From NCBI GenBank assembly GCA_041500405.1, contig JBGQMB010000001.1, positions 9,490 to 73,489 of the forward strand: DNA of 64,000 bases, written 5' to 3'. This document shows positions 2,110 through 14,836 of the stretch, piece after piece (position 1 is the first letter of the stretch; every line of letters begins with the position of its first letter). The position numbers and the translations under genes are program-made. Below the pieces are notes generated by a model that was given only the letters and a program-made list of their open reading frames with translations, had not been told where the DNA came from and made no database searches. Origin of the DNA: Candidatus Micrarchaeia archaeon (lineage in GTDB: Archaea > Micrarchaeota > Micrarchaeia > Anstonellales > J096).

Positions 2110-2982
2110 TTGATGGACCCAGTTTCATACAGGGAATACCTTTCGCAGTACACTGATCCGGACGTTCTTCTGGACACGCTGGAGAGTTTGCGGAAGACAT
2201 TCAGGGTCAACACGCTCAAGTGCTCGGAAGAAAAGTTTCTTTCCTTTACTGAAATGAAGATGGAGAAGGAGCCCCTGCCCCTTGCGTACAGCATGGGCGC
2301 GGATTTTCCAATAGGCAACACGCTGGAGTTTTTCTCGGGCATGATTCATACGCAGACCCTTTCATCAATGCTCCCGCCGCTTGTTCTGGAGCCCAAGCCG
2401 CACGAAAAGGTGCTTGACATGGCGGCAGCCCCCGGCGGAAAGACAACCCAGATGAGCGCCATGATGAAAAACACGGGAATAATAATCGCGAATGACGTAA
2501 AGATAGGCAGGCTGAGCGTCCTTGTCGGCAACATGCGGAGGCTTGGCGCGCTCAACATAACTGTCACAAGGGGCGACGCAAGGCGCCTTGATTACAAAAA
2601 TGAGTTTGACAGGGTTTTGCTCGACGCCCCGTGCTCGTCCATGGGTTCGTCCCTTTCGTCTTTCAGGACATTGGACAGGGACAGGCTAAGGGATATGGCA
2701 AGGGTGCAAAGGAAACTGGCAATCGCGGGCTTTGACGCGCTCAAGCCAAACGGGGCAATGGTGTATTCCACGTGCACGTTTTCAAAGGAGGAGAACGAGG
2801 AAATAGTGAAATTCCTTCTTGAGAGCAGGCCAAGCGCAAGGCTGGAAAAAATAAGCATGGACATGCCCCACGACGGCGGGCTTTCCGAATACGGGGCGGA
2901 ATTTAAAAAAGTTTGGCGCATCCAACCGCACCACTTAAAAAGCGAAGGCTTCTTTATAGCGAGGATAAGCAAGGGCCCTTAG
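2110..2982 (+). CDS. NOL1/NOP2/Sun-family RNA cytosine-C5 methyltransferase
   Basis: DMAAAPGGKTTQM SAM-binding motif, DAPCSSMG (Pro-Cys motif) and YSTCTF (second catalytic Cys motif) characteristic of RsmB/NSUN enzymes. 290 aa. Confidence 0.8.
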   Translation: MMDPVSYREYLSQYTDPDVLLDTLESLRKTFRVNTLKCSEEKFLSFTEMKMEKEPLPLAYSMGADFPIGNTLEFFSGMIHTQTLSSMLPPLVLEPKPHEKVLDMAAAPGGKTTQMSAMMKNTGIIIANDVKIGRLSVLVGNMRRLGALNITVTRGDARRLDYKNEFDRVLLDAPCSSMGSSLSSFRTLDRDRLRDMARVQRKLAIAGFDALKPNGAMVYSTCTFSKEENEEIVKFLLESRPSARLEKISMDMPHDGGLSEYGAEFKKVWRIQPHHLKSEGFFIARISKGP

Positions 2983-3044
2983 ATCAGCGGTAGATCGCTC
3001 CCCTCGCACGGGAGAGGCCAGGGGTTCAAATCCCCTAGGGTCCA
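2973..3044 (+). tRNA. tRNA-Ala (anticodon CGC)
   Basis: Hand-folded cloverleaf: acceptor GGGCCCT/AGGGTCC with the G3:U70 Ala identity pair, D-arm GATC-AGCGGTA-GATC, anticodon arm CTCCC-CTCGCAC-GGGAG (anticodon CGC), T-arm AGGGG-TTCAAAT-CCCCT, discriminator A. No encoded CCA. The 5-prime end overlaps the last 10 nt of the preceding CDS. Confidence 0.9.
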
Positions 3045-3111: not shown

Positions 3112-3212
3112 TGGGGATACGGGGATTTGAACCCCGACCTACAGGTTTCTTCTAATCGCGCGTCCGCGCAAAACCTGGAGCCTGCCGTGCTACCTGGTTG
3201 CACTATACCCCC
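3112..3212 (-). tRNA. tRNA-Trp (anticodon CCA) with 28-nt intron after position 37
   Basis: Reverse complement folds as acceptor GGGGGTA/TATCCCC, D-arm GTGC-AACCAGGTA-GCAC, anticodon stem GCAGG/CCTGT with loop CTCCA(G) interrupted by GTTTTGCGCGGACGCGCGATTAGAAGAA, T-arm CGGGG-TTCAAAT-CCCCG, discriminator A. An intron at the canonical 37/38 site is typical of archaeal tRNA-Trp. Confidence 0.85.
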
Positions 3213-4548: not shown

Positions 4549-5574
4549 TCAAATTTTCCTTGACCCGTTTTTTGTTTCGGTTTTTGCTTTCAGAAGTTGC
4601 GCAGCTACAGGGAAATAGTCCACCTTGTGCTCTTCATAGACATGGAGCATTTCGTAATCCCCGGCAACATCGCCGAAGCGGTTCATGAAGTCCCCCATCA
4701 TGGACCGGAAATCCCTTTCGTCGCTAACCTCTGCCTCTATTTCCAAGTCCCATTCGCCGAAGCAGCCCACGAAATAGACGACTTCCGGTCTCAATGCGCA
4801 GAATGAATAGATAGTTTTCTCGTCCTTTTCCCCAAGGGATTTTGCGCTGACGATTGCCTTGTAGAATTTCCTGCCTGTTTTCTCCAGGTCCATGATTGTG
4901 CGGTATGCCTGTATTATGCCGTCTTTCTCAAGCTTCCTTATTCTCTCCTTTACCGCCCCATCGCTCATGCCAATTGTCTGCCCAAGTTCGCGGTTTGGCA
5001 GCCGGGCATTCCTGCCAAGGAGCTCCAGCAGCCGCAGGTTAGTTTCGTCCAGCTTGTATGGCCCGTACTCAAAGCCATAGACGAACGTTTCAGGGGGCAT
5101 TTCCCTTTCTTCTCCTGTGAGATAGGTCCTCTTGAAGTGGTAGTTGAACGTTGAGGGCGAAACAGAATAGCTTTTCAGCCGCTCGCCAAGCTCAGCCTTG
5201 ATTTTTCTTAGGATGTTGCTGAAATCAACCGGGTTCCTTGCCGCCAGGAGAATCTCCAGGTCCCACCTGCCGCTTGTGCTTGCCACCCACATGGACGGCA
5301 CCTCGCCCTTGAGATATTCTATTATCTTCGGATAGTCTGACGGAGGGGCTTTCTGCAGCCGCAGATAGAGCCTGTATGAGTAATATCCGAGCTTATGCAG
5401 ATTGATCAGGGCAGTGAAACCCTTTATCACCCCGGCTTCAGTCAGCTTATTGAGCCGGTATTTGGCGAGTTGAGGCGAAATCCCGACCTTTTTGGCAAGG
5501 ACAGCAAGGGGAATCCGGGCATTGAAGTCCAGTTCGGCGAGCATCCGGAAGTCCTTCTTATCGAGCTTTTCCAT
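4549..5574 (-). CDS. Lrp/AsnC-family transcriptional regulator, tandem (two HTH plus two RAM domains in one polypeptide)
   Basis: Two repeats of the Lrp architecture: LDKKDFRMLAELDFNARIPLAVLAKKVGISPQLAKYRLNKLTEAGVIKGF and LDETNLRLLELLGRNARLPNRELGQTIGMSDGAVKERIRKLEKDGIIQAY, each followed by a RAM-like segment. Start moved to MEKLDKK (5574); the upstream 44 aa of the track ORF read through an AT-rich promoter region. Confidence 0.7.
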   Translation of the reverse strand: MEKLDKKDFRMLAELDFNARIPLAVLAKKVGISPQLAKYRLNKLTEAGVIKGFTALINLHKLGYYSYRLYLRLQKAPPSDYPKIIEYLKGEVPSMWVASTSGRWDLEILLAARNPVDFSNILRKIKAELGERLKSYSVSPSTFNYHFKRTYLTGEEREMPPETFVYGFEYGPYKLDETNLRLLELLGRNARLPNRELGQTIGMSDGAVKERIRKLEKDGIIQAYRTIMDLEKTGRKFYKAIVSAKSLGEKDEKTIYSFCALRPEVVYFVGCFGEWDLEIEAEVSDERDFRSMMGDFMNRFGDVAGDYEMLHVYEEHKVDYFPVAAQLLKAKTETKNGSRKI

Positions 5575-5695
5575 GCTTGTTTTATATTTAGTAGTTTTTA
5601 TAAGCTTTTCTACTTTTTCTAAAAAAATAGGACTATATTGTTTTATATATATCAAAAGCCACGTATAGACACAGGTAAACACAAATGAGGCGATT

Positions 5696-6223
5696 ATGAT
5701 GACCATGAATACCCGGATGCTGGCTTTGAAAGCTGAACGCCTGGAAAAAAAGACGAGAAAATTTGGGATGTCGCATCATTCGATGCTCTTCAATGAACCA
5801 CTCGTAGAGTTGAAGCGGGACCTACAGATAAGGCAGGGTATGAAGGATAGCTTTGAGGCTGTCAAAACAAAAGTTTCCCCGGTCGATACAGGTGTAGATA
5901 ACGGAGTATGTAAAGGTAAAGGACTTGAGTTCTGGCTGAAAAATTCCCCGACGGGGATTGCCCTTTGCAATGCCTTACCAAAGCAGGCTACCATTCTGGG
6001 GAGTGTTTTAAGTGCTATCCTGGTTGCAGAAATGGCAATATGGTCTATTGTTCCGGAAGCTGTACAAACAATTACAGGCATATATGGAGTTCCAACCAAG
6101 TTACTCTGGTTCTATGAAAATTTTCCTCCAATAGTAGTAACATGCCTTTTTGGGATGTTCACCTCGGCTTTTGCTGGGTGTACAGCCGCAGCGTTCCGTG
6201 ACGAAGCGATAAGAGACAAATAA
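5696..6223 (+). CDS. hypothetical membrane protein sharing its N-terminal 25 aa with the next gene
   Basis: 175 aa. N-terminus MMTMNTRMLALKAERLEKKTRKFGM. Two C-terminal hydrophobic helices (ATILGSVLSAILVAEMAIWSIV; PPIVVTCLFGMFTSAFAGCTAAAF). Strong extended SD GAGGCGAT 5 nt upstream. Confidence 0.5.
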   Translation: MMTMNTRMLALKAERLEKKTRKFGMSHHSMLFNEPLVELKRDLQIRQGMKDSFEAVKTKVSPVDTGVDNGVCKGKGLEFWLKNSPTGIALCNALPKQATILGSVLSAILVAEMAIWSIVPEAVQTITGIYGVPTKLLWFYENFPPIVVTCLFGMFTSAFAGCTAAAFRDEAIRDK

Positions 6224-6239
6224 CACAGATGAGGCGATT

Positions 6240-7151
6240 ATGATGACTATGAAAACAAGGATGCTTGCCCGGAAGGCTGAGCGCGAAATGAACAAAGCGT
6301 ACAAGCTCGGCATGGAGTGGGGCGGAGATTTCCTCAGGCAACTGCGCGACGAACTAAGGGCATTCAAGGTGGATGTCGATAAGGATGATTCTGACACGCG
6401 CAGCCCAAGCGAGATCCACCGCGCTAGATGCTACACCCACGTATGCAACATCTTGCATACGACGGAAAGCACCAAGGAAGCAATCGCAAAATCCATCGAT
6501 AGCACGGTTGGGATACTGGAGGATGCGGCAAAGAAGCGCGGCGAACTACAGGAGGGACAGCGCGAAATGTGCGTGGTCTCATACAGGCCTTACAGGTACG
6601 AGTGCGAACTCAAAGTATGTGGCATAAGCAAGGCCGAATTCTGGTTAATGAAGGCAGCGGGCGCAACTCGCAAAACCCTGCTGCCATGTGCGGCAACAGC
6701 AGCCATGGCATGGCTTGCTTGTGAGAACTGGCCTGCAATAGCGCATGCTGCAACTTCGGCAACAAATCACATCGTAGACATAGCAGTAGCGGCAAAGGCA
6801 TATCTTGCAAAAAATATAAGGGAGATTGCAACAGTAGCGGCAGGTTTCGTTATTTTTATGACTATTATAGTTGGAGGGAGAAGCCGGCCTGAGCAGGAGA
6901 TGTCAGACAGTGAACTGCTCTTCGCAGCGGTCCACGACATGAGGGTAGGGATGGAGAGGGCGCTGAGGGAGCAAGATAGGAAGTGTGAGGAAAGCGTGGA
7001 AGCATGGCGGGTCGTTCACATGTTTAAGTATCTAATTCCTGCCGAAGAGATGAAGGCGAAGGTCCTGAAAGCGGCAGAGGAAATGCTGGCAACGGTAAAT
7101 ATGATTGAGGCTGCAGTAAAAGAGCAGCTGCAGCCGGCCAGGAAGATTTGA
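6240..7151 (+). CDS. hypothetical Cys-rich protein sharing its N-terminal 25 aa with the previous gene
   Basis: 303 aa. N-terminus MMTMKTRMLARKAEREMNKAYKLGM. Cys pairs CYTHVC, CVVSYRPYRYECELKVC and PCAATAAMAWLAC. One hydrophobic segment IATVAAGFVIFMTIIVGG. Same GAGGCGATTATGATG leader DNA as the upstream gene. Confidence 0.5.
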   Translation: MMTMKTRMLARKAEREMNKAYKLGMEWGGDFLRQLRDELRAFKVDVDKDDSDTRSPSEIHRARCYTHVCNILHTTESTKEAIAKSIDSTVGILEDAAKKRGELQEGQREMCVVSYRPYRYECELKVCGISKAEFWLMKAAGATRKTLLPCAATAAMAWLACENWPAIAHAATSATNHIVDIAVAAKAYLAKNIREIATVAAGFVIFMTIIVGGRSRPEQEMSDSELLFAAVHDMRVGMERALREQDRKCEESVEAWRVVHMFKYLIPAEEMKAKVLKAAEEMLATVNMIEAAVKEQLQPARKI

Positions 7152-7164
7152 AGAGGCGATTATT

Positions 7165-8886
7165 ATGGAAATGCAGATGAAGAAATTGGAGATAACGCGC
7201 CTTTCCAAAACGACATTCCCGATAATGAGTCCGCAAAATGCAGGCAGGATGGTTGAAAACAACTTGAGGATAGACAATATCTTCGCATCGGGCAGGGCGG
7301 CTGACCCGCTGGTTGCGGGGGAGCTTGACGAACTGAAAAAGGAAAGCCTGCACCTGCTGACGATAATGTATCCTCCGAAGGCCTGCAACTTCAAATGCCC
7401 GAACTATTGCTGCACGGAAGGCATCGACAAGGGCAGGCTGGACAACGGGCAGATCCTGGAAATCGTCAGGCAGGCAACCGAGCTGGGCATGAAAGTGACG
7501 TACTTTCCCGGCCTTGGCGAACTGCCCCTGCTGAAGAAATTCTGGGAACTCCAGGAAGAACTTCATAGGATGAGGATAGCTTCAGTCGTGTTCACAAACG
7601 GCAGCGCGTTCTGGGACGACGGGCTGGCAAGGACCGCTACAGGGAAGAGCGCCGAGGAGCTTATAGAGAAGGTCAATGAAATAGGGATGTATCTCTATGT
7701 GAAATACTGGCACTCTGACCCGAAGGAGGCGGCAAGGATGGTTGGCGTTAGGGAAAGCGAGTATCCGTACAAAACGCTGGCGGACGGCATGCGCATCCCG
7801 CTTGCGCTCGCGAGACTGATGGAACGCATGTCTAAAGACAGGCTCGGCGTCGAGGTGATGGTTTCGCGGGAAAATTACGGCGACGTGGTTGCGAACATCA
7901 TGCCCAATATAGAAAAACTTGGCCTTTATGGACTCATGGAGCCGGTCATATTCTCAGGAAAGGCCGAGGGAAGGCAGGCAGAGCTGGCGCTCACGCCGGA
8001 GCAGTATTCATCGCTCGCAGACCAGTTCATAAGCGGCGGGAAATGGTGCATAAAAAGGCAGTCGCGGGAAGCGTCGCTTGTCGGAGAAAACCTGCTGCTG
8101 GCAATGCTGCTGCCGCCGGCACAGGAGAACCGCGTGCTGGACAACAGCGGAGCGCTGAAGCCTATTCTCGGCATACTGCATGGGCCAGAAGCCAGAAGGA
8201 TAAGGGCAGACAACGACAGGTACGGCTGCGTTTGCAGGCACTATTTTCTTGAGAAGCAGAAGGAGAGAAGGATGGACGAACTTTTCGGCGCCTTTGCGCC
8301 TGACTACATCGTTCACATGGACAGAACGAACCACTCTGCAGTCCAGAAAAGAATAATGGACGGGTTTATCGGCCACATAGGAAAGAAGGTCCTTGACATA
8401 GCGACCGGACCGGGCACAATCGCGAAATACGTGAAGGGAGCAAAGTCGGAATGCGAGGTGCACGGAATTGACAGGAACGAAAAGATGCTCATAGAGGCGA
8501 CAAAAGACCCTCAGGGGGTGGAATTCAAGAAAGGCGAGGCCACAGCCCTGCCGGCCAAGGACGGGACTTACGACACCGTAACTTCGTCCTATGCGTTCTA
8601 TTGGATAAAGGATCCGGAAAAGGCGATCTCGGAAGTCGGACGGGTGCTGAAAACAGGCGGAACGTTCATCGTGCTTGAAGAGGAGTTCAACGGCGGGGAC
8701 ACACAACCGGTCTTCTCCAGATACGACCGGGCAGACCTGAAGGAACTTGCCGGTCTGGAGAACTACATCGGCGTGGCACGCGTAAGGCAGATGATAGAGG
8801 CAGCAGGTTTTGAGTTTGTGGAGCAAGTGCAGTATCCGGTTGACGAACGCCACGGCACAGCAGGGATGGCTTTCAGGAAGAGATAA
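7165..8886 (+). CDS. fusion protein: radical-SAM-like N-terminal domain (non-canonical Cys cluster) plus C-terminal class I SAM-dependent methyltransferase
   Basis: 573 aa. N-terminal domain: IMYPPKACNFKCPNYCCTEG (Cx3Cx3CC) and TYFPGLGELPLL, which resembles the radical-SAM GGEP SAM-binding motif. C-terminal domain: VLDIATGPGTIAKYV (motif I), GIDRNEKMLIEA, and LKTGGTFIVLEEEF, typical of UbiE/COQ5-like methyltransferases. Confidence 0.55.
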   Translation: MEMQMKKLEITRLSKTTFPIMSPQNAGRMVENNLRIDNIFASGRAADPLVAGELDELKKESLHLLTIMYPPKACNFKCPNYCCTEGIDKGRLDNGQILEIVRQATELGMKVTYFPGLGELPLLKKFWELQEELHRMRIASVVFTNGSAFWDDGLARTATGKSAEELIEKVNEIGMYLYVKYWHSDPKEAARMVGVRESEYPYKTLADGMRIPLALARLMERMSKDRLGVEVMVSRENYGDVVANIMPNIEKLGLYGLMEPVIFSGKAEGRQAELALTPEQYSSLADQFISGGKWCIKRQSREASLVGENLLLAMLLPPAQENRVLDNSGALKPILGILHGPEARRIRADNDRYGCVCRHYFLEKQKERRMDELFGAFAPDYIVHMDRTNHSAVQKRIMDGFIGHIGKKVLDIATGPGTIAKYVKGAKSECEVHGIDRNEKMLIEATKDPQGVEFKKGEATALPAKDGTYDTVTSSYAFYWIKDPEKAISEVGRVLKTGGTFIVLEEEFNGGDTQPVFSRYDRADLKELAGLENYIGVARVRQMIEAAGFEFVEQVQYPVDERHGTAGMAFRKR

Positions 8887-8900
8887 AAGCAACCCTTTCC

Positions 8901-8910
8901 TTTTTTAAAT
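8901..8910 (+). promoter_or_regulatory. putative TATA box for cysS
   Basis: TTTTTTAAAT centred about 25 nt upstream of the cysS ATG (8930). Implies a short leader or leaderless mRNA. Confidence 0.35.
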
Positions 8911-12419: not shown

Positions 12420-13115
12420 ATGCTCAAAAAATACATTCAGATGTTCCCGTTCGTGAGGAAGGAGCTGGGCGAGCTTGCGGCAAACCCGAACAAGGCAATG
12501 CCCAAGGAGATAGAAAACTCGACGGCAATCCGCGGCCTGAAGGACGCGGCAATCTCCGCATTCGTCTTTTCCACAGTCATGTCGCTTTTCTGGATTATAT
12601 TTAGCATGCGGACCCTTCTGCCGGCGCTGGCGGCGATGCCCTTGGTCGTGGTTGGCATGGTGATAAGCGTATACGCAATTTCGCTTGTCGCGACGATTTT
12701 GTTAAACATTGTGCTTGAGCTGATTCCGACTGCCTGCGTGTATTATCTCATAGCAAAAGTCTTGGGCGGCAAGGGCTCATTTGGAAAGACCTTGGGAATG
12801 CTCAGCACGATATCGGCGCCTAGAAACCTCCTGCTCATCGCACTGCTTGTGATTTCGGGCATACTGATGGCGATTGTCAACACGTTCCTGGGAAGCCTTT
12901 ACACAATCGCATACATACTGGTAATTCTGGGCGGCACTGCGCTGGCGTTCTTCCAGCTTTACCTCAACTACAAGATGGTCAGGATGCTCCACGGCCTTTC
13001 AAGGGGCAAGTCCGTTGTGGTTGTCGCGATTCCGCCTTTGATGGCGATTGCAGTTGTGATGGCGCTTGTGTCATGGATAATTTCCATCGTTGCGTCCATA
13101 ATGCCCGCCGCCTAG
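12420..13115 (+). CDS. polytopic membrane protein, paralog 1 of 3 (Yip1-like?)
   Basis: Shares KYIxMFPFVRKEL, AKVLGGKGSFGKTLGMLSTI and YLNYKMVRMLHGLS with the next two genes. Start set at MLKKY (12420); the longer track ORF 12201.. is probably an upstream extension. Confidence 0.55.
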   Translation: MLKKYIQMFPFVRKELGELAANPNKAMPKEIENSTAIRGLKDAAISAFVFSTVMSLFWIIFSMRTLLPALAAMPLVVVGMVISVYAISLVATILLNIVLELIPTACVYYLIAKVLGGKGSFGKTLGMLSTISAPRNLLLIALLVISGILMAIVNTFLGSLYTIAYILVILGGTALAFFQLYLNYKMVRMLHGLSRGKSVVVVAIPPLMAIAVVMALVSWIISIVASIMPAA

Positions 13116-13164: not shown

Positions 13165-13878
13165 ATGGCAGACAATTCTTGGGTTGTTGGTCTTAAGGAC
13201 CTGATAAGGAAATACATTATGATTTTCCCGTTCGTGAGGAAGAAGGAATTCACAGAAATAATAATAAACCCGGATTCCGCGATCCCGAACGAGATAAAGA
13301 CGTCCTCGATAGGCAAGGGATTCAAGGATGCAGTGGTGCCCTACCTTTTCATCGTCATCATAGGGTCCGTAATCAGCGCTTTGATAAGCATTGCAATGTC
13401 TGCGGCCGGACTTGGCGCTGCCGGGATTGTGAATACGGTAATATCAAGCGCCATCCAGTTCGTAATCGCGCTGGTCATCGCCCCCATTTTCCTTGCGGTT
13501 GCGCTGTTCCTGACAGCGGCGCTGTATTTCATCCTGGCAAAGGTGCTTGGCGGAAAAGGCAGTTTCGGGAAGACGATGGGCATGCTCGGCACCATAGTGG
13601 GCCCGATATGCCTGCTCAACATAATAACCAACATTTTGAGCGTGATACCGCTGGTTGCATGCATAGCGGCCATACCGGCGCTGGCAATAAGCATATACTG
13701 CCTTTACCTTAACTTCAGGATGGTCAAGGCGCTGCACAGCCTGGATGATATTAAGGCGGCGGTGGTCGTAATAATACCGATACTGCTGGCGATTGCGCTT
13801 ACCATTGCCGTGATAGCGGTGATGGCATCCATGCTGGGAATGGCGGCATACACGCAGGCATTGCCGTCCACGGGCTGA
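13165..13878 (+). CDS. polytopic membrane protein, paralog 2 of 3
   Basis: 237 aa. MADNSWVVGLKDLIRKYIMIFPFVRKKEF, AKVLGGKGSFGKTMGMLGTI and YLNFRMVKALHSL, conserved with paralogs 1 and 3. Confidence 0.6.
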   Translation: MADNSWVVGLKDLIRKYIMIFPFVRKKEFTEIIINPDSAIPNEIKTSSIGKGFKDAVVPYLFIVIIGSVISALISIAMSAAGLGAAGIVNTVISSAIQFVIALVIAPIFLAVALFLTAALYFILAKVLGGKGSFGKTMGMLGTIVGPICLLNIITNILSVIPLVACIAAIPALAISIYCLYLNFRMVKALHSLDDIKAAVVVIIPILLAIALTIAVIAVMASMLGMAAYTQALPSTG

Positions 13879-14107: not shown

Positions 14108-14836
14108 ATGGCAGAGAATTCCCTGATTATTACGCTGAAGGACTGGACAAGGAAATACATAATGCTTTTTCCGTATATTAGGAAAAAGGAATTCGCTGGT
14201 ATGGTAACCAACCCTGATTCCGCAATCCAGGCCGAGGTAAATTCAGCCTCAGCGTTGAAAGGGGTTGGTGATGCCATACTTTCGTTGTGGCTATACATAA
14301 TAACAAAGTCTTGTTTTGTTATAGTTTTGTTCCTTGCGGCAGTCATCATATCAGCTTTTGCCAGCAGAGCAGCAGGCGTCGCAAGCACATATAGCAGCGG
14401 AGAATTAATGGGCCCAATCGCAACCCTAGTTTTGAATTCAGCCAGTGCGCTCGTAATCTTGCCTTTTTTACTGGCCATTGGACTGTTTATTGCGGCCGTC
14501 ATATATTTTGTTGTCGCGAAGATACTCGGCGGAAAGGGAAGCTTCGGCAAGACGATGGGAATGCTCGGCACCATAGCAGGCATCGTATTCCTGCTCACGA
14601 TAATACCAGACATTTTGTGCATTATTCCATTTGGTATATTGATAGCGGCTATACCATTATTGGCCGTATTGATTTTCGCCCTTTACCTCAATTTCAAGAT
14701 GATCCAGAGCCTTCACGGACTCAGCGGCATCAAGGCAGCGGCCGTGGTGGTAATATCGTTGCTGATAATAACCGCTCCATTTATCCTTGCCGGAGCCGTG
14801 CTGTTAATGCTATTATTCAATTTTGCACATATGTAA
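14108..14836 (+). CDS. polytopic membrane protein, paralog 3 of 3
   Basis: 242 aa. MAENSLIITLKDWTRKYIMLFPYIRKKEF, AKILGGKGSFGKTMGMLGTI and YLNFKMIQSLHGLS. Confidence 0.6.
   Translation: MAENSLIITLKDWTRKYIMLFPYIRKKEFAGMVTNPDSAIQAEVNSASALKGVGDAILSLWLYIITKSCFVIVLFLAAVIISAFASRAAGVASTYSSGELMGPIATLVLNSASALVILPFLLAIGLFIAAVIYFVVAKILGGKGSFGKTMGMLGTIAGIVFLLTIIPDILCIIPFGILIAAIPLLAVLIFALYLNFKMIQSLHGLSGIKAAAVVVISLLIITAPFILAGAVLLMLLFNFAHM

Follow-up and report, generated by a model that had tools for sequence, protein, structure and literature searches.

In a 64,000-nucleotide (nt) stretch of contig JBGQMB010000001.1 from a Candidatus Micrarchaeia archaeon (the window), three consecutive plus-strand open reading frames (ORFs), here called A, B and C, raise the question of why two proteins that differ over most of their length begin with the same short segment, and whether this shared head has anything to do with the enzyme encoded immediately downstream. 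Gene A (5696..6223, 175 aa), gene B (6240..7151, 303 aa) and gene C (7165-8886, 573 aa) have the lengths given by a first-pass annotation of the locus, and with gaps of 16 nt between A and B and 13 nt between B and C, and the same ribosome-binding site on each, they form one tight operon as judged from the sequence. The reading that we consider moderately probable is that A and B would be diverged tandem paralogues carrying a docking or oligomerisation hairpin at their N-termini, inserted in a radical S-adenosylmethionine (radical-SAM) operon controlled by an Lrp/AsnC-type protein.

A repeat search of the window found a 63-nt direct repeat with 83% identity between its copies. The first copy (5678..5740, + strand) belongs to gene A, and the second (6222..6284, +), which overlaps the stop codon of A, to gene B; each holds 18 nt of leader, identical at 17 of 18 positions and including the ribosome-binding site, followed by the first 15 codons of the gene. 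The first-pass annotation had described this repeat with its second copy placed 1-2 nt away, and the two N-termini that it quoted match the translations exactly. It had also stated that gene C is preceded by the same leader element, and the 11-mer GAGGCGATTAT indeed occurs in exactly three copies in the 64 kb, at 5687, 6231 and 7153, each directly preceding the start of one of the three genes; the third (7153..7163, +) is the ribosome-binding site of gene C. When one mismatch was allowed, 8 matches were found against 0.93 expected, a number reached by none of 100 shuffles. The repeat is genuine and statistically solid. In L001, one of the comparison contigs and loci (designated L; comparison proteins are designated P), the position orthologous to the gene C ribosome-binding site carries a different sequence, and hence the triple identity of GAGGCGATTAT is specific to this genome. 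The element GAGGCGAT resembles sites of the GAGGT, AGGTG and GGTGA type that stand before other operon-internal genes of the window and is consistent with an extended Shine-Dalgarno sequence.

Codons 1-25 of A and B were compared for synonymous and replacement differences. Twelve degenerate codons encode the same non-methionine residue in both genes and ten of these differ synonymously, while eight positions carry replacements. The duplication is therefore not recent, and the recent duplication that the first-pass annotation had named as a counter-explanation finds no support here. With silent sites saturated, residues kept and the leader nearly unchanged, selection acts on the peptide as well as on the translation-initiation region. 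The N-terminus common to A and B is on this pattern a genuine module maintained by purifying selection, neither a chance match nor a fresh duplication; constraint works on the amino acids in the peptide and on the nucleotides in the 18-nt leader, which includes the Shine-Dalgarno sequence. We also considered an RNA element in the repeat and rejected it, as shuffled sequences fold just as stably as the three 5' regions do (z -0.8 to +0.7). No RNA family was found in the repeat, Rfam at gathering thresholds giving only tRNAs in the window.

The N-termini of A and B align over 26 residues with 17 identities in BLASTP (E=1e-6), or 17 of 25 over the residues originally quoted. Past residue 26 the Smith-Waterman score of 34 is not significant, as shuffled sequences score 29.3±4.4 and 76 of 500 reach 34. 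In the product of gene A the module (residues 1 to about 41) leads through a linker to two transmembrane segments predicted from hydropathy at 97-123 and 143-166. The product of gene B has, after its module, a helical region that contains a CX4C, a single segment of this kind at 192-215, and a C-terminal helical block, with eight cysteines in all. The two C-terminal transmembrane helices that the first-pass annotation had assigned to A were thus found again, and the single segment in B had been overlooked. Word-based searches of 5.8 billion proteins with A and B each returned only the query itself, neither protein matched anything in PHROGs or PADLOC, and a metagenome scan for DNA encoding MTM[KN]TRMLA gave seven matches, all of them unrelated signal peptides or chance. 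Two further observations on B were set aside: its 'EWGG' motif could be read as a double-glycine leader or a WXG motif, a reading that we dropped, as neither A nor the relative P0014 described below has the motif, and a contig break inside B in a JGI assembly is a mere assembly overlap, the sequence being that of the window with one mismatch.

As orphans with atypical base composition (GC content at third codon positions, GC3, of 0.44 in A and 0.58 in B, against 0.66-0.70 in gene C and the cysteinyl-tRNA synthetase gene, CysRS) and low codon scores, A and/or B might be suspected of not being real genes at all, the similarity then being a non-coding duplication. We find this hardly credible, since the annotated frame is nevertheless the best of six for both, a Shine-Dalgarno sequence lies at the proper distance before each ORF, and both the synonymous versus replacement pattern and the three collinear blocks of P0014 are coding signatures. 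The GC3 values and codon scores look typical of young, acquired or fast-evolving accessory genes.

An exhaustive HMMER search of 1.84 billion cluster representatives with B retrieved a single relative, P0014, a protein of 371 aa from another metagenome (43 bits, E=4.6e-6). P0014 and B share three collinear blocks, namely the N-terminal module (21 of 41 residues identical), a middle motif and the C-terminal helical block, and they have conserved cysteines in common, a CX4C and an MC. P0014 is without a hydrophobic segment. The weak middle motif VCxGxxxEFWL reads FKVYTISKSEFQLKKVAG in P0014, LKVCGISKAEFWLMKAAG in B and VCKGKGLEFWLKNSPTG in A, so that P0014 is linked to B through three blocks and to A through the head and this motif. 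The description of A and B as otherwise unrelated is probably worded too strongly, given that the motif recurs in P0014. For A, B and P0014, Pfam and NCBIfam gave nothing credible, and a scan of viral contigs with the family alignment gave nothing.

P0014 further contains a second copy of the module, residues 8-34 aligning with residues 117-143 at a score of 45 (shuffles 25.4±3.7; none of 500 reaches it), which indicates that the module is a domain-like unit of about 41 residues and more than a 25-residue tag. No second internal copy was detected in A or B. The module is basic and amphipathic and has no hydrophobic core, which makes a classical targeting signal unlikely; a common targeting signal had been one of the options of the first-pass annotation. 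An AlphaFold2 (AF2) model of B from a three-sequence alignment places a helix at residues 4-22, a turn and a second helix at 26-41, at low confidence (predicted local distance difference test score, pLDDT, 36), and we rejected this model as unusable for a fold search. A profile of the module compared against the PDB, and with hhalign against the enzyme family of gene C, matched nothing.

The gene for P0014 sits on a 2.1-kb contig, L018, where the 134 nt upstream of it are 85% identical to window positions 5563-5695 and hold the first codons of the regulator described below (MEKL), a TATA-like box and the leader. Downstream, a spacer of about 185 nt is followed by a convergent ankyrin-repeat gene, and a gene C homologue is absent within the 2.1 kb of this contig. 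Over the first 75 coding nt, A and P0014 are 80% identical (3/10 synonymous changes), A and B 65% and B and P0014 68%. These values imply that the duplication happened before the two organisms parted, or that B came from a divergent source. At positions where L018 agrees with only one of the two genes, it is A-like to about +49 and mixed beyond, and the body of P0014 is B-like. On these few sites, the simplest reading would be that P0014 is an A-type head joined to a B-type body, a product that recombination between direct repeats would yield.

We thus favour the reading that A and B are tandem members, long and strongly diverged, of a tiny family restricted to this lineage, with P0014 as its third known member, in which the basic N-terminal helical hairpin of about 41 residues and the translation-initiation region would be the only well-kept parts. 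The 63-nt repeat would then be the still-recognisable remnant of the common origin of A and B, whose status as diverged tandem paralogues we infer from the shared head and from P0014. The hairpin may serve as a protein-protein docking or oligomerisation domain, for example in A-B pairing, and would not be a cleavable leader; the identical ribosome-binding sites on A, B and C might match their translation rates. Several points weigh against this. With three known carriers of the module in two genomes, the statistics on selection and on the breakpoint draw on a few dozen sites. Past residue 41, homology of A to B or P0014 is not demonstrable. The HMMER search with B did not recover A, which means that such searches of large databases would overlook proteins with nothing but the 25-41-aa module in common. 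L018 is only 2.1 kb long, and the genome it comes from could have a radical-SAM/methyltransferase gene in another place. The role given to the hairpin draws on sequence periodicity and the poor AF2 model, and the top structural neighbours of the gene C enzyme include many peptide-modifying radical-SAM enzymes, so that a substrate relationship is possible.

Upstream of gene A lies a conserved promoter and 5' leader cassette of 82 nt (5621..5702, +), which contains the TATA-like TTGTTTTATATATA at 5638-5651, CACGTATAGACACAG and the leader AACACAAATGAGGCGATT and runs to the first codons (ATGATG start). It is 86.6% identical to L001 6209-6289, where the flanking proteins are 51% (regulator) and 50% (radical-SAM protein) identical to those of the window, and a stretch of 161 nt is 85% identical to L018 (19-179). 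This constraint is much stronger than for a typical archaeal promoter, and the sequence suggests a promoter or operator role. The first gene after the cassette differs from genome to genome: A and B follow it in the window, P0014 in L018, and in L001 a gene (6286-7980) starting with MMKT that encodes a 564-aa radical-SAM protein with a canonical CPNECGYC motif and an N-terminal domain of about 250 aa of no known type. This L001 gene is unrelated to A and B and lies between the regulator and the gene C homologue, in the slot held by A and B here. Since each of the three genomes has a different first gene after one and the same cassette, the slot behind the promoter varies, and we propose that A and B were inserted in this slot, behind a cassette that would be controlled by the Lrp/AsnC-type protein. 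As separate observations on this region, TTGTTTTATAT(T/A)TA occurs twice in the intergenic region of 26% GC, at 5577-5590 and 5638-5651 with a spacing of 61 nt, and the two copies may be the TATA elements of divergent transcripts, and a further TATA-like TTTTTATAAG at 5594-5603 would render the regulator mRNA leaderless. A four-codon mini-ORF, ATG AGG CGA TTA TGA, whose stop overlaps the main ATG, occurs at 5685-5699, 6229-6243 and L018 124-138, that is, before A, B and P0014, and is absent from L001 (ATATTAGGGG) and from the region before C; we treated it as incidental, probably to the Shine-Dalgarno sequence, and rejected it as a functional element.

The same observations permit an explanation at the nucleotide level, in which leader, start codon and first codons are a portable translation-initiation segment and homology arm for the swapping of cargo, copied before B and with its core copied before C, and conservation of the peptide is secondary. 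The 82 nt that precede three different first genes in three genomes, the MMKT start in L001, and the C ribosome-binding site that is identical in this genome only would all fit. So would the mosaic pattern, in which the leader of A resembles that of B and the coding 5' end of A resembles L018, suggesting short-tract conversion, and in which L018 turns from A-like to mixed with a B-like P0014 body, as expected from recombination between repeats. Against it, the combination of saturated synonymous sites and kept residues in the shared codons points to selection on the peptide past codon 5, the repeat has neither an RNA structure nor an Rfam family, and the breakpoint is placed by about 30 sites; we regard this explanation as improbable. 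Conserved-head, variable-body gene families are known, among them the polymorphic toxins with swapped C-terminal cassettes. The present genes resemble such families in their conserved 5' end, diverged or unrelated remainder, tandem layout and hint of recombination at the head, and differ in that the head is about 41 aa long, the family has three members, and no toxin, immunity or secretion domains were found with Pfam, NCBIfam, PHROGs or PADLOC.

Gene C had been described in the first-pass annotation as a fusion of a radical-SAM-like and a methyltransferase domain, and Pfam and the modelled fold agree with this; the accompanying statement that none of the three genes could be placed in a known family is wrong for C. 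Its N-terminal domain (residues 1 to about 362; 7165..8250, +) has a predicted radical-SAM fold of the twitch/SPASM clade. The modelled structure of residues 1-360 is a partial (beta/alpha)6 TIM-barrel with the cluster loop after beta1, and in the model residues 1-60 make up two helices. The domain has nine homologues that stand alone (342-363 aa, 42-50% identity, no Pfam annotation), and further homologues were found in genome contigs of Candidatus Micrarchaeota and in other uncultured archaeal metagenome-assembled genomes. The motif C74-x3-C78-x3-C82 (7384-7410) is invariant in the window protein and the nine homologues. Since the distant homologues in L009 (CDFNCSIC) and P0011 (CNADCPIC) have the canonical CX3CX2C spacing, CX3CX3C is a one-residue variant of the radical-SAM cluster motif. 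A GGE-like PGxGE, with P115-G116-x-G118-E119 invariant, comes right behind strand 110-114; C295 and H339 are also invariant, GCxCR (C355/C357) is nearly so, and the model has a hairpin at 302-312. The 7-Cys SPASM motif is absent, and three conserved C-terminal cysteines stand in its place in a predicted twitch-like arrangement. PF04055 does not match gene C at E<=1, and only TIGR04317 matches, at 27.5 bits against a cut-off of 380. A literature search on CX3CX3C radical-SAM enzymes and on radical-SAM enzymes of Micrarchaeota gave nothing relevant.

The C-terminal domain of gene C (8251..8886, +) is a class I SAM-dependent methyltransferase of the UbiE/Methyltransf_11 type. Residues 400-560 match Methyltransf_11 (PF08241, E=5.8e-19, 69 bits against a cut-off of 21.2) and PF01209 (65 bits), motif I (VLDIATGPG) is present, and matches in the PDB are LahSB and other methyltransferases. 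No assignment at equivalog level was obtained, UbiE and BioC remaining far below their cut-offs, and a mad2 match in the PADLOC/PHROGs scan falls in this same domain. In L008, L010, L019 and L020 the radical-SAM gene has a separate methyltransferase gene of 211-212 aa right behind it, whose product shares 43-46% identity with the C-terminal domain (the 212-aa protein of L008 is 45% identical), from which we conclude that C is a fusion of two genes that work together. Such Rosetta-stone fusions, split in relatives and joined here, are nothing unusual and indicate joint activity only. A T-rich run (CTTTTTT; 8896..8906, +), read from the sequence 10 nt past the C stop codon, marks the probable end of the operon and may act as an archaeal oligo-T terminator.

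Divergently transcribed from the operon is a gene for a 341-aa tandem Lrp/AsnC-type protein (4549..5574, - strand) with two HTH_AsnC plus RAM-like units. Its start is the ATG at 5574 (MEKLDKK) and not the in-frame upstream ATG at 5706, as the MEKL start is kept in L018 and L001. Pfam HTH_24 (E=2e-29) and HTH_AsnC-type (E=5e-24) each match two stretches, NCBIfam matches are to LysM, LrpA and Lrp (E~1e-20), and the RAM domain, which passes the cut-off in the L009 orthologue, gives a weak match in the window protein (E=1.6e-4). In every locus that reaches far enough upstream (L001/L007, L003/L004, L008, L009, L019, which is partial, L020, L021, L022/L023 and the window), a divergent tandem Lrp/AsnC-type gene of 320-341 aa adjoins the radical-SAM gene, and no A/B-like gene or module was found in the nine other enzyme loci. 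By this comparison of loci, enzyme and regulator are a conserved unit independent of A and B. We describe the conserved operon cargo of the relatives as a twitch-type CX3CX3C radical-SAM enzyme with a class I methyltransferase partner, the two being fused in the window.

The siroheme decarboxylases AhbAB/NirDL, which occur with AhbC/AhbD/NirJ, likewise place a fused Lrp/AsnC-like pair beside a SPASM-clade radical-SAM enzyme, and by that analogy the Lrp-like protein might be an enzyme partner instead of a regulator. The matches of the regulator to these families are weak and far below family cut-offs (AhbA E=4e-9, NirDL helix-turn-helix E=5e-7), and NirJ/AhbC/AhbD match the L009 homologue of the enzyme at E about 3e-4 to 5e-3, NirJ itself at about 4e-4, also below family cut-offs. 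By comparison, the LysM, LrpA and Lrp matches are stronger, and the divergent orientation with the conserved intergenic cassette fits a transcription factor.

Having an enzyme of this clade behind two genes with a common head, the operon recalls ribosomally synthesised and post-translationally modified peptide (RiPP) systems, in which products that otherwise differ start with a short conserved segment and are encoded upstream of a radical-SAM enzyme, and the first-pass annotation had proposed such a leader logic for A and B. The differences are considerable. The carriers are large (175, 303 and 371 aa) and partly membrane-embedded, two having predicted transmembrane segments, and no short leader-core peptide is present; the module is repeated internally in P0014, which is unlike a leader; and no RiPP recognition element (RRE) or PqqD-like domain was found in C with Pfam or NCBIfam. 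The proposed co-occurrence of module and enzyme is not conserved either, as the enzyme occurs in nine loci without the module and the module occurs in L018 without the enzyme within 2.1 kb, which is a small sample. Lacking a short precursor, an RRE and conserved co-occurrence, the RiPP-like model fails the tests run, and a leader-peptide role for the module is possible but unsupported. At the level of the enzyme, the SPASM/twitch maturases SuiB (5v1q), SkfB (6efn), CteB (5wgg), PqqE (6c8v) and anSME (4k36) share 9-17% identity with gene C at template-modelling (TM) scores of 0.35-0.48. In contrast to them, gene C has no RRE domain, carries the three C-terminal cysteines in place of the 7-Cys motif, and belongs to a family that is mostly CX3CX3C, has no PF04055 match and is without a conserved precursor gene. 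Nor is it a sequence-level member of the small-molecule twitch enzymes MoaA (1tv7), BlsE (7vob), viperin (5vsl) and AbmM (8wm2) or of the lipid enzyme GDGT-MAS (7tom), and these families are not known to be accompanied by a class I methyltransferase and a tandem Lrp/AsnC protein.

A looser version of this idea, in which the module is a recognition or docking peptide that presents A and B to the fused enzyme for modification or membrane recruitment, draws on the tight operon with its identical ribosome-binding sites and on the protein-level selection on the module. The best structural neighbours of the radical-SAM domain, which include the RiPP or protein maturases SuiB, SkfB, PqqE, ChlB, TigE, CteB, EpeE and anSME, also speak for it, and the conserved cysteines of B and P0014 (CX4C, MC) could be modification sites. 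We judge it unlikely, though it is the alternative that we take most seriously: enzyme and regulator are kept together in nine other loci that have no module gene, the P0014 gene stands without an enzyme gene on its short contig, and the size of the carriers, the internal repeat and the missing RRE/PqqD-like domain count here as well. Equally good structural neighbours (MoaA, BlsE, viperin, GDGT-MAS) act on small molecules or lipids, and the operon, flanked by the regulator and CysRS genes, has no protease or exporter gene beside it. Just short of that in probability we place the combined proposal that the hairpin is a portable docking module delivering membrane or soluble proteins to the fused enzyme for post-translational modification, with the 5' cassette as a homology arm for cargo swapping.

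The partner of the hairpin could instead be the tandem Lrp/AsnC protein, in which case A, B and P0014, whether tethered to the membrane or soluble, would modulate the regulator of their own promoter. The regulator gene with its 85%-identical cassette is the only partner of module genes in both genomes, and a basic amphipathic helical hairpin is typical of interaction domains. Yet the association is seen in two genomes only, and L001 has regulator and cassette without a module gene; we hold this alternative to be distinctly improbable.

Several other features of the window and its comparison contigs were recorded alongside. In L005 (8001-10595), P0011 is a distant radical-SAM homologue (29% identity, CX3CX2C) fused to a class II aminoacyl-tRNA-synthetase-like domain (PF00152), and its neighbourhood, with phosphodiesterase-family, methyltransferase, FemAB-like and major facilitator superfamily (MFS) genes, resembles a biosynthetic cluster. 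Three tandem membrane paralogues with Yip1 domains (12420-13115, 13165-13878 and 14108-14836, all +; PF04893, E 5e-7 to 1.5e-13) have motifs such as K(V/I)LGGKGSFGKT(L/M)GML in common and represent another local family expansion in this genome. A 101-nt Rfam tRNA match (3112-3212, -; 56 bits) that ARAGORN did not call lies beside tRNA-Ala (2973-3044) and is probably an intron-containing archaeal tRNA. Finally, a D12-class (Dam-like) N6-adenine DNA methyltransferase gene (550-2074, +; PF02086, E=6e-64) with an atypical codon score is preceded by an unannotated 187-aa ORF, and the two may be a horizontally acquired restriction-modification pair.

If the reading that we favour is correct, A and B would mostly be ordinary lineage-specific diverged paralogues, in which the shared head is striking because the remainder has decayed, and the enzyme family and the cassette with its changing cargo would be the more interesting by-products. 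The 82-nt cassette would show on a small scale how, in nature, cargo genes can change behind a regulated promoter that stays in place. Were docking onto the enzyme to prove true instead, it would extend leader-guided modification to full-size membrane proteins in a DPANN archaeon. The enzymes themselves, an uncharacterised archaeal radical-SAM family with an invariant CX3CX3C motif, no Pfam match, an Lrp/AsnC partner and often a methyltransferase, are a target for the biochemistry of DPANN archaea.

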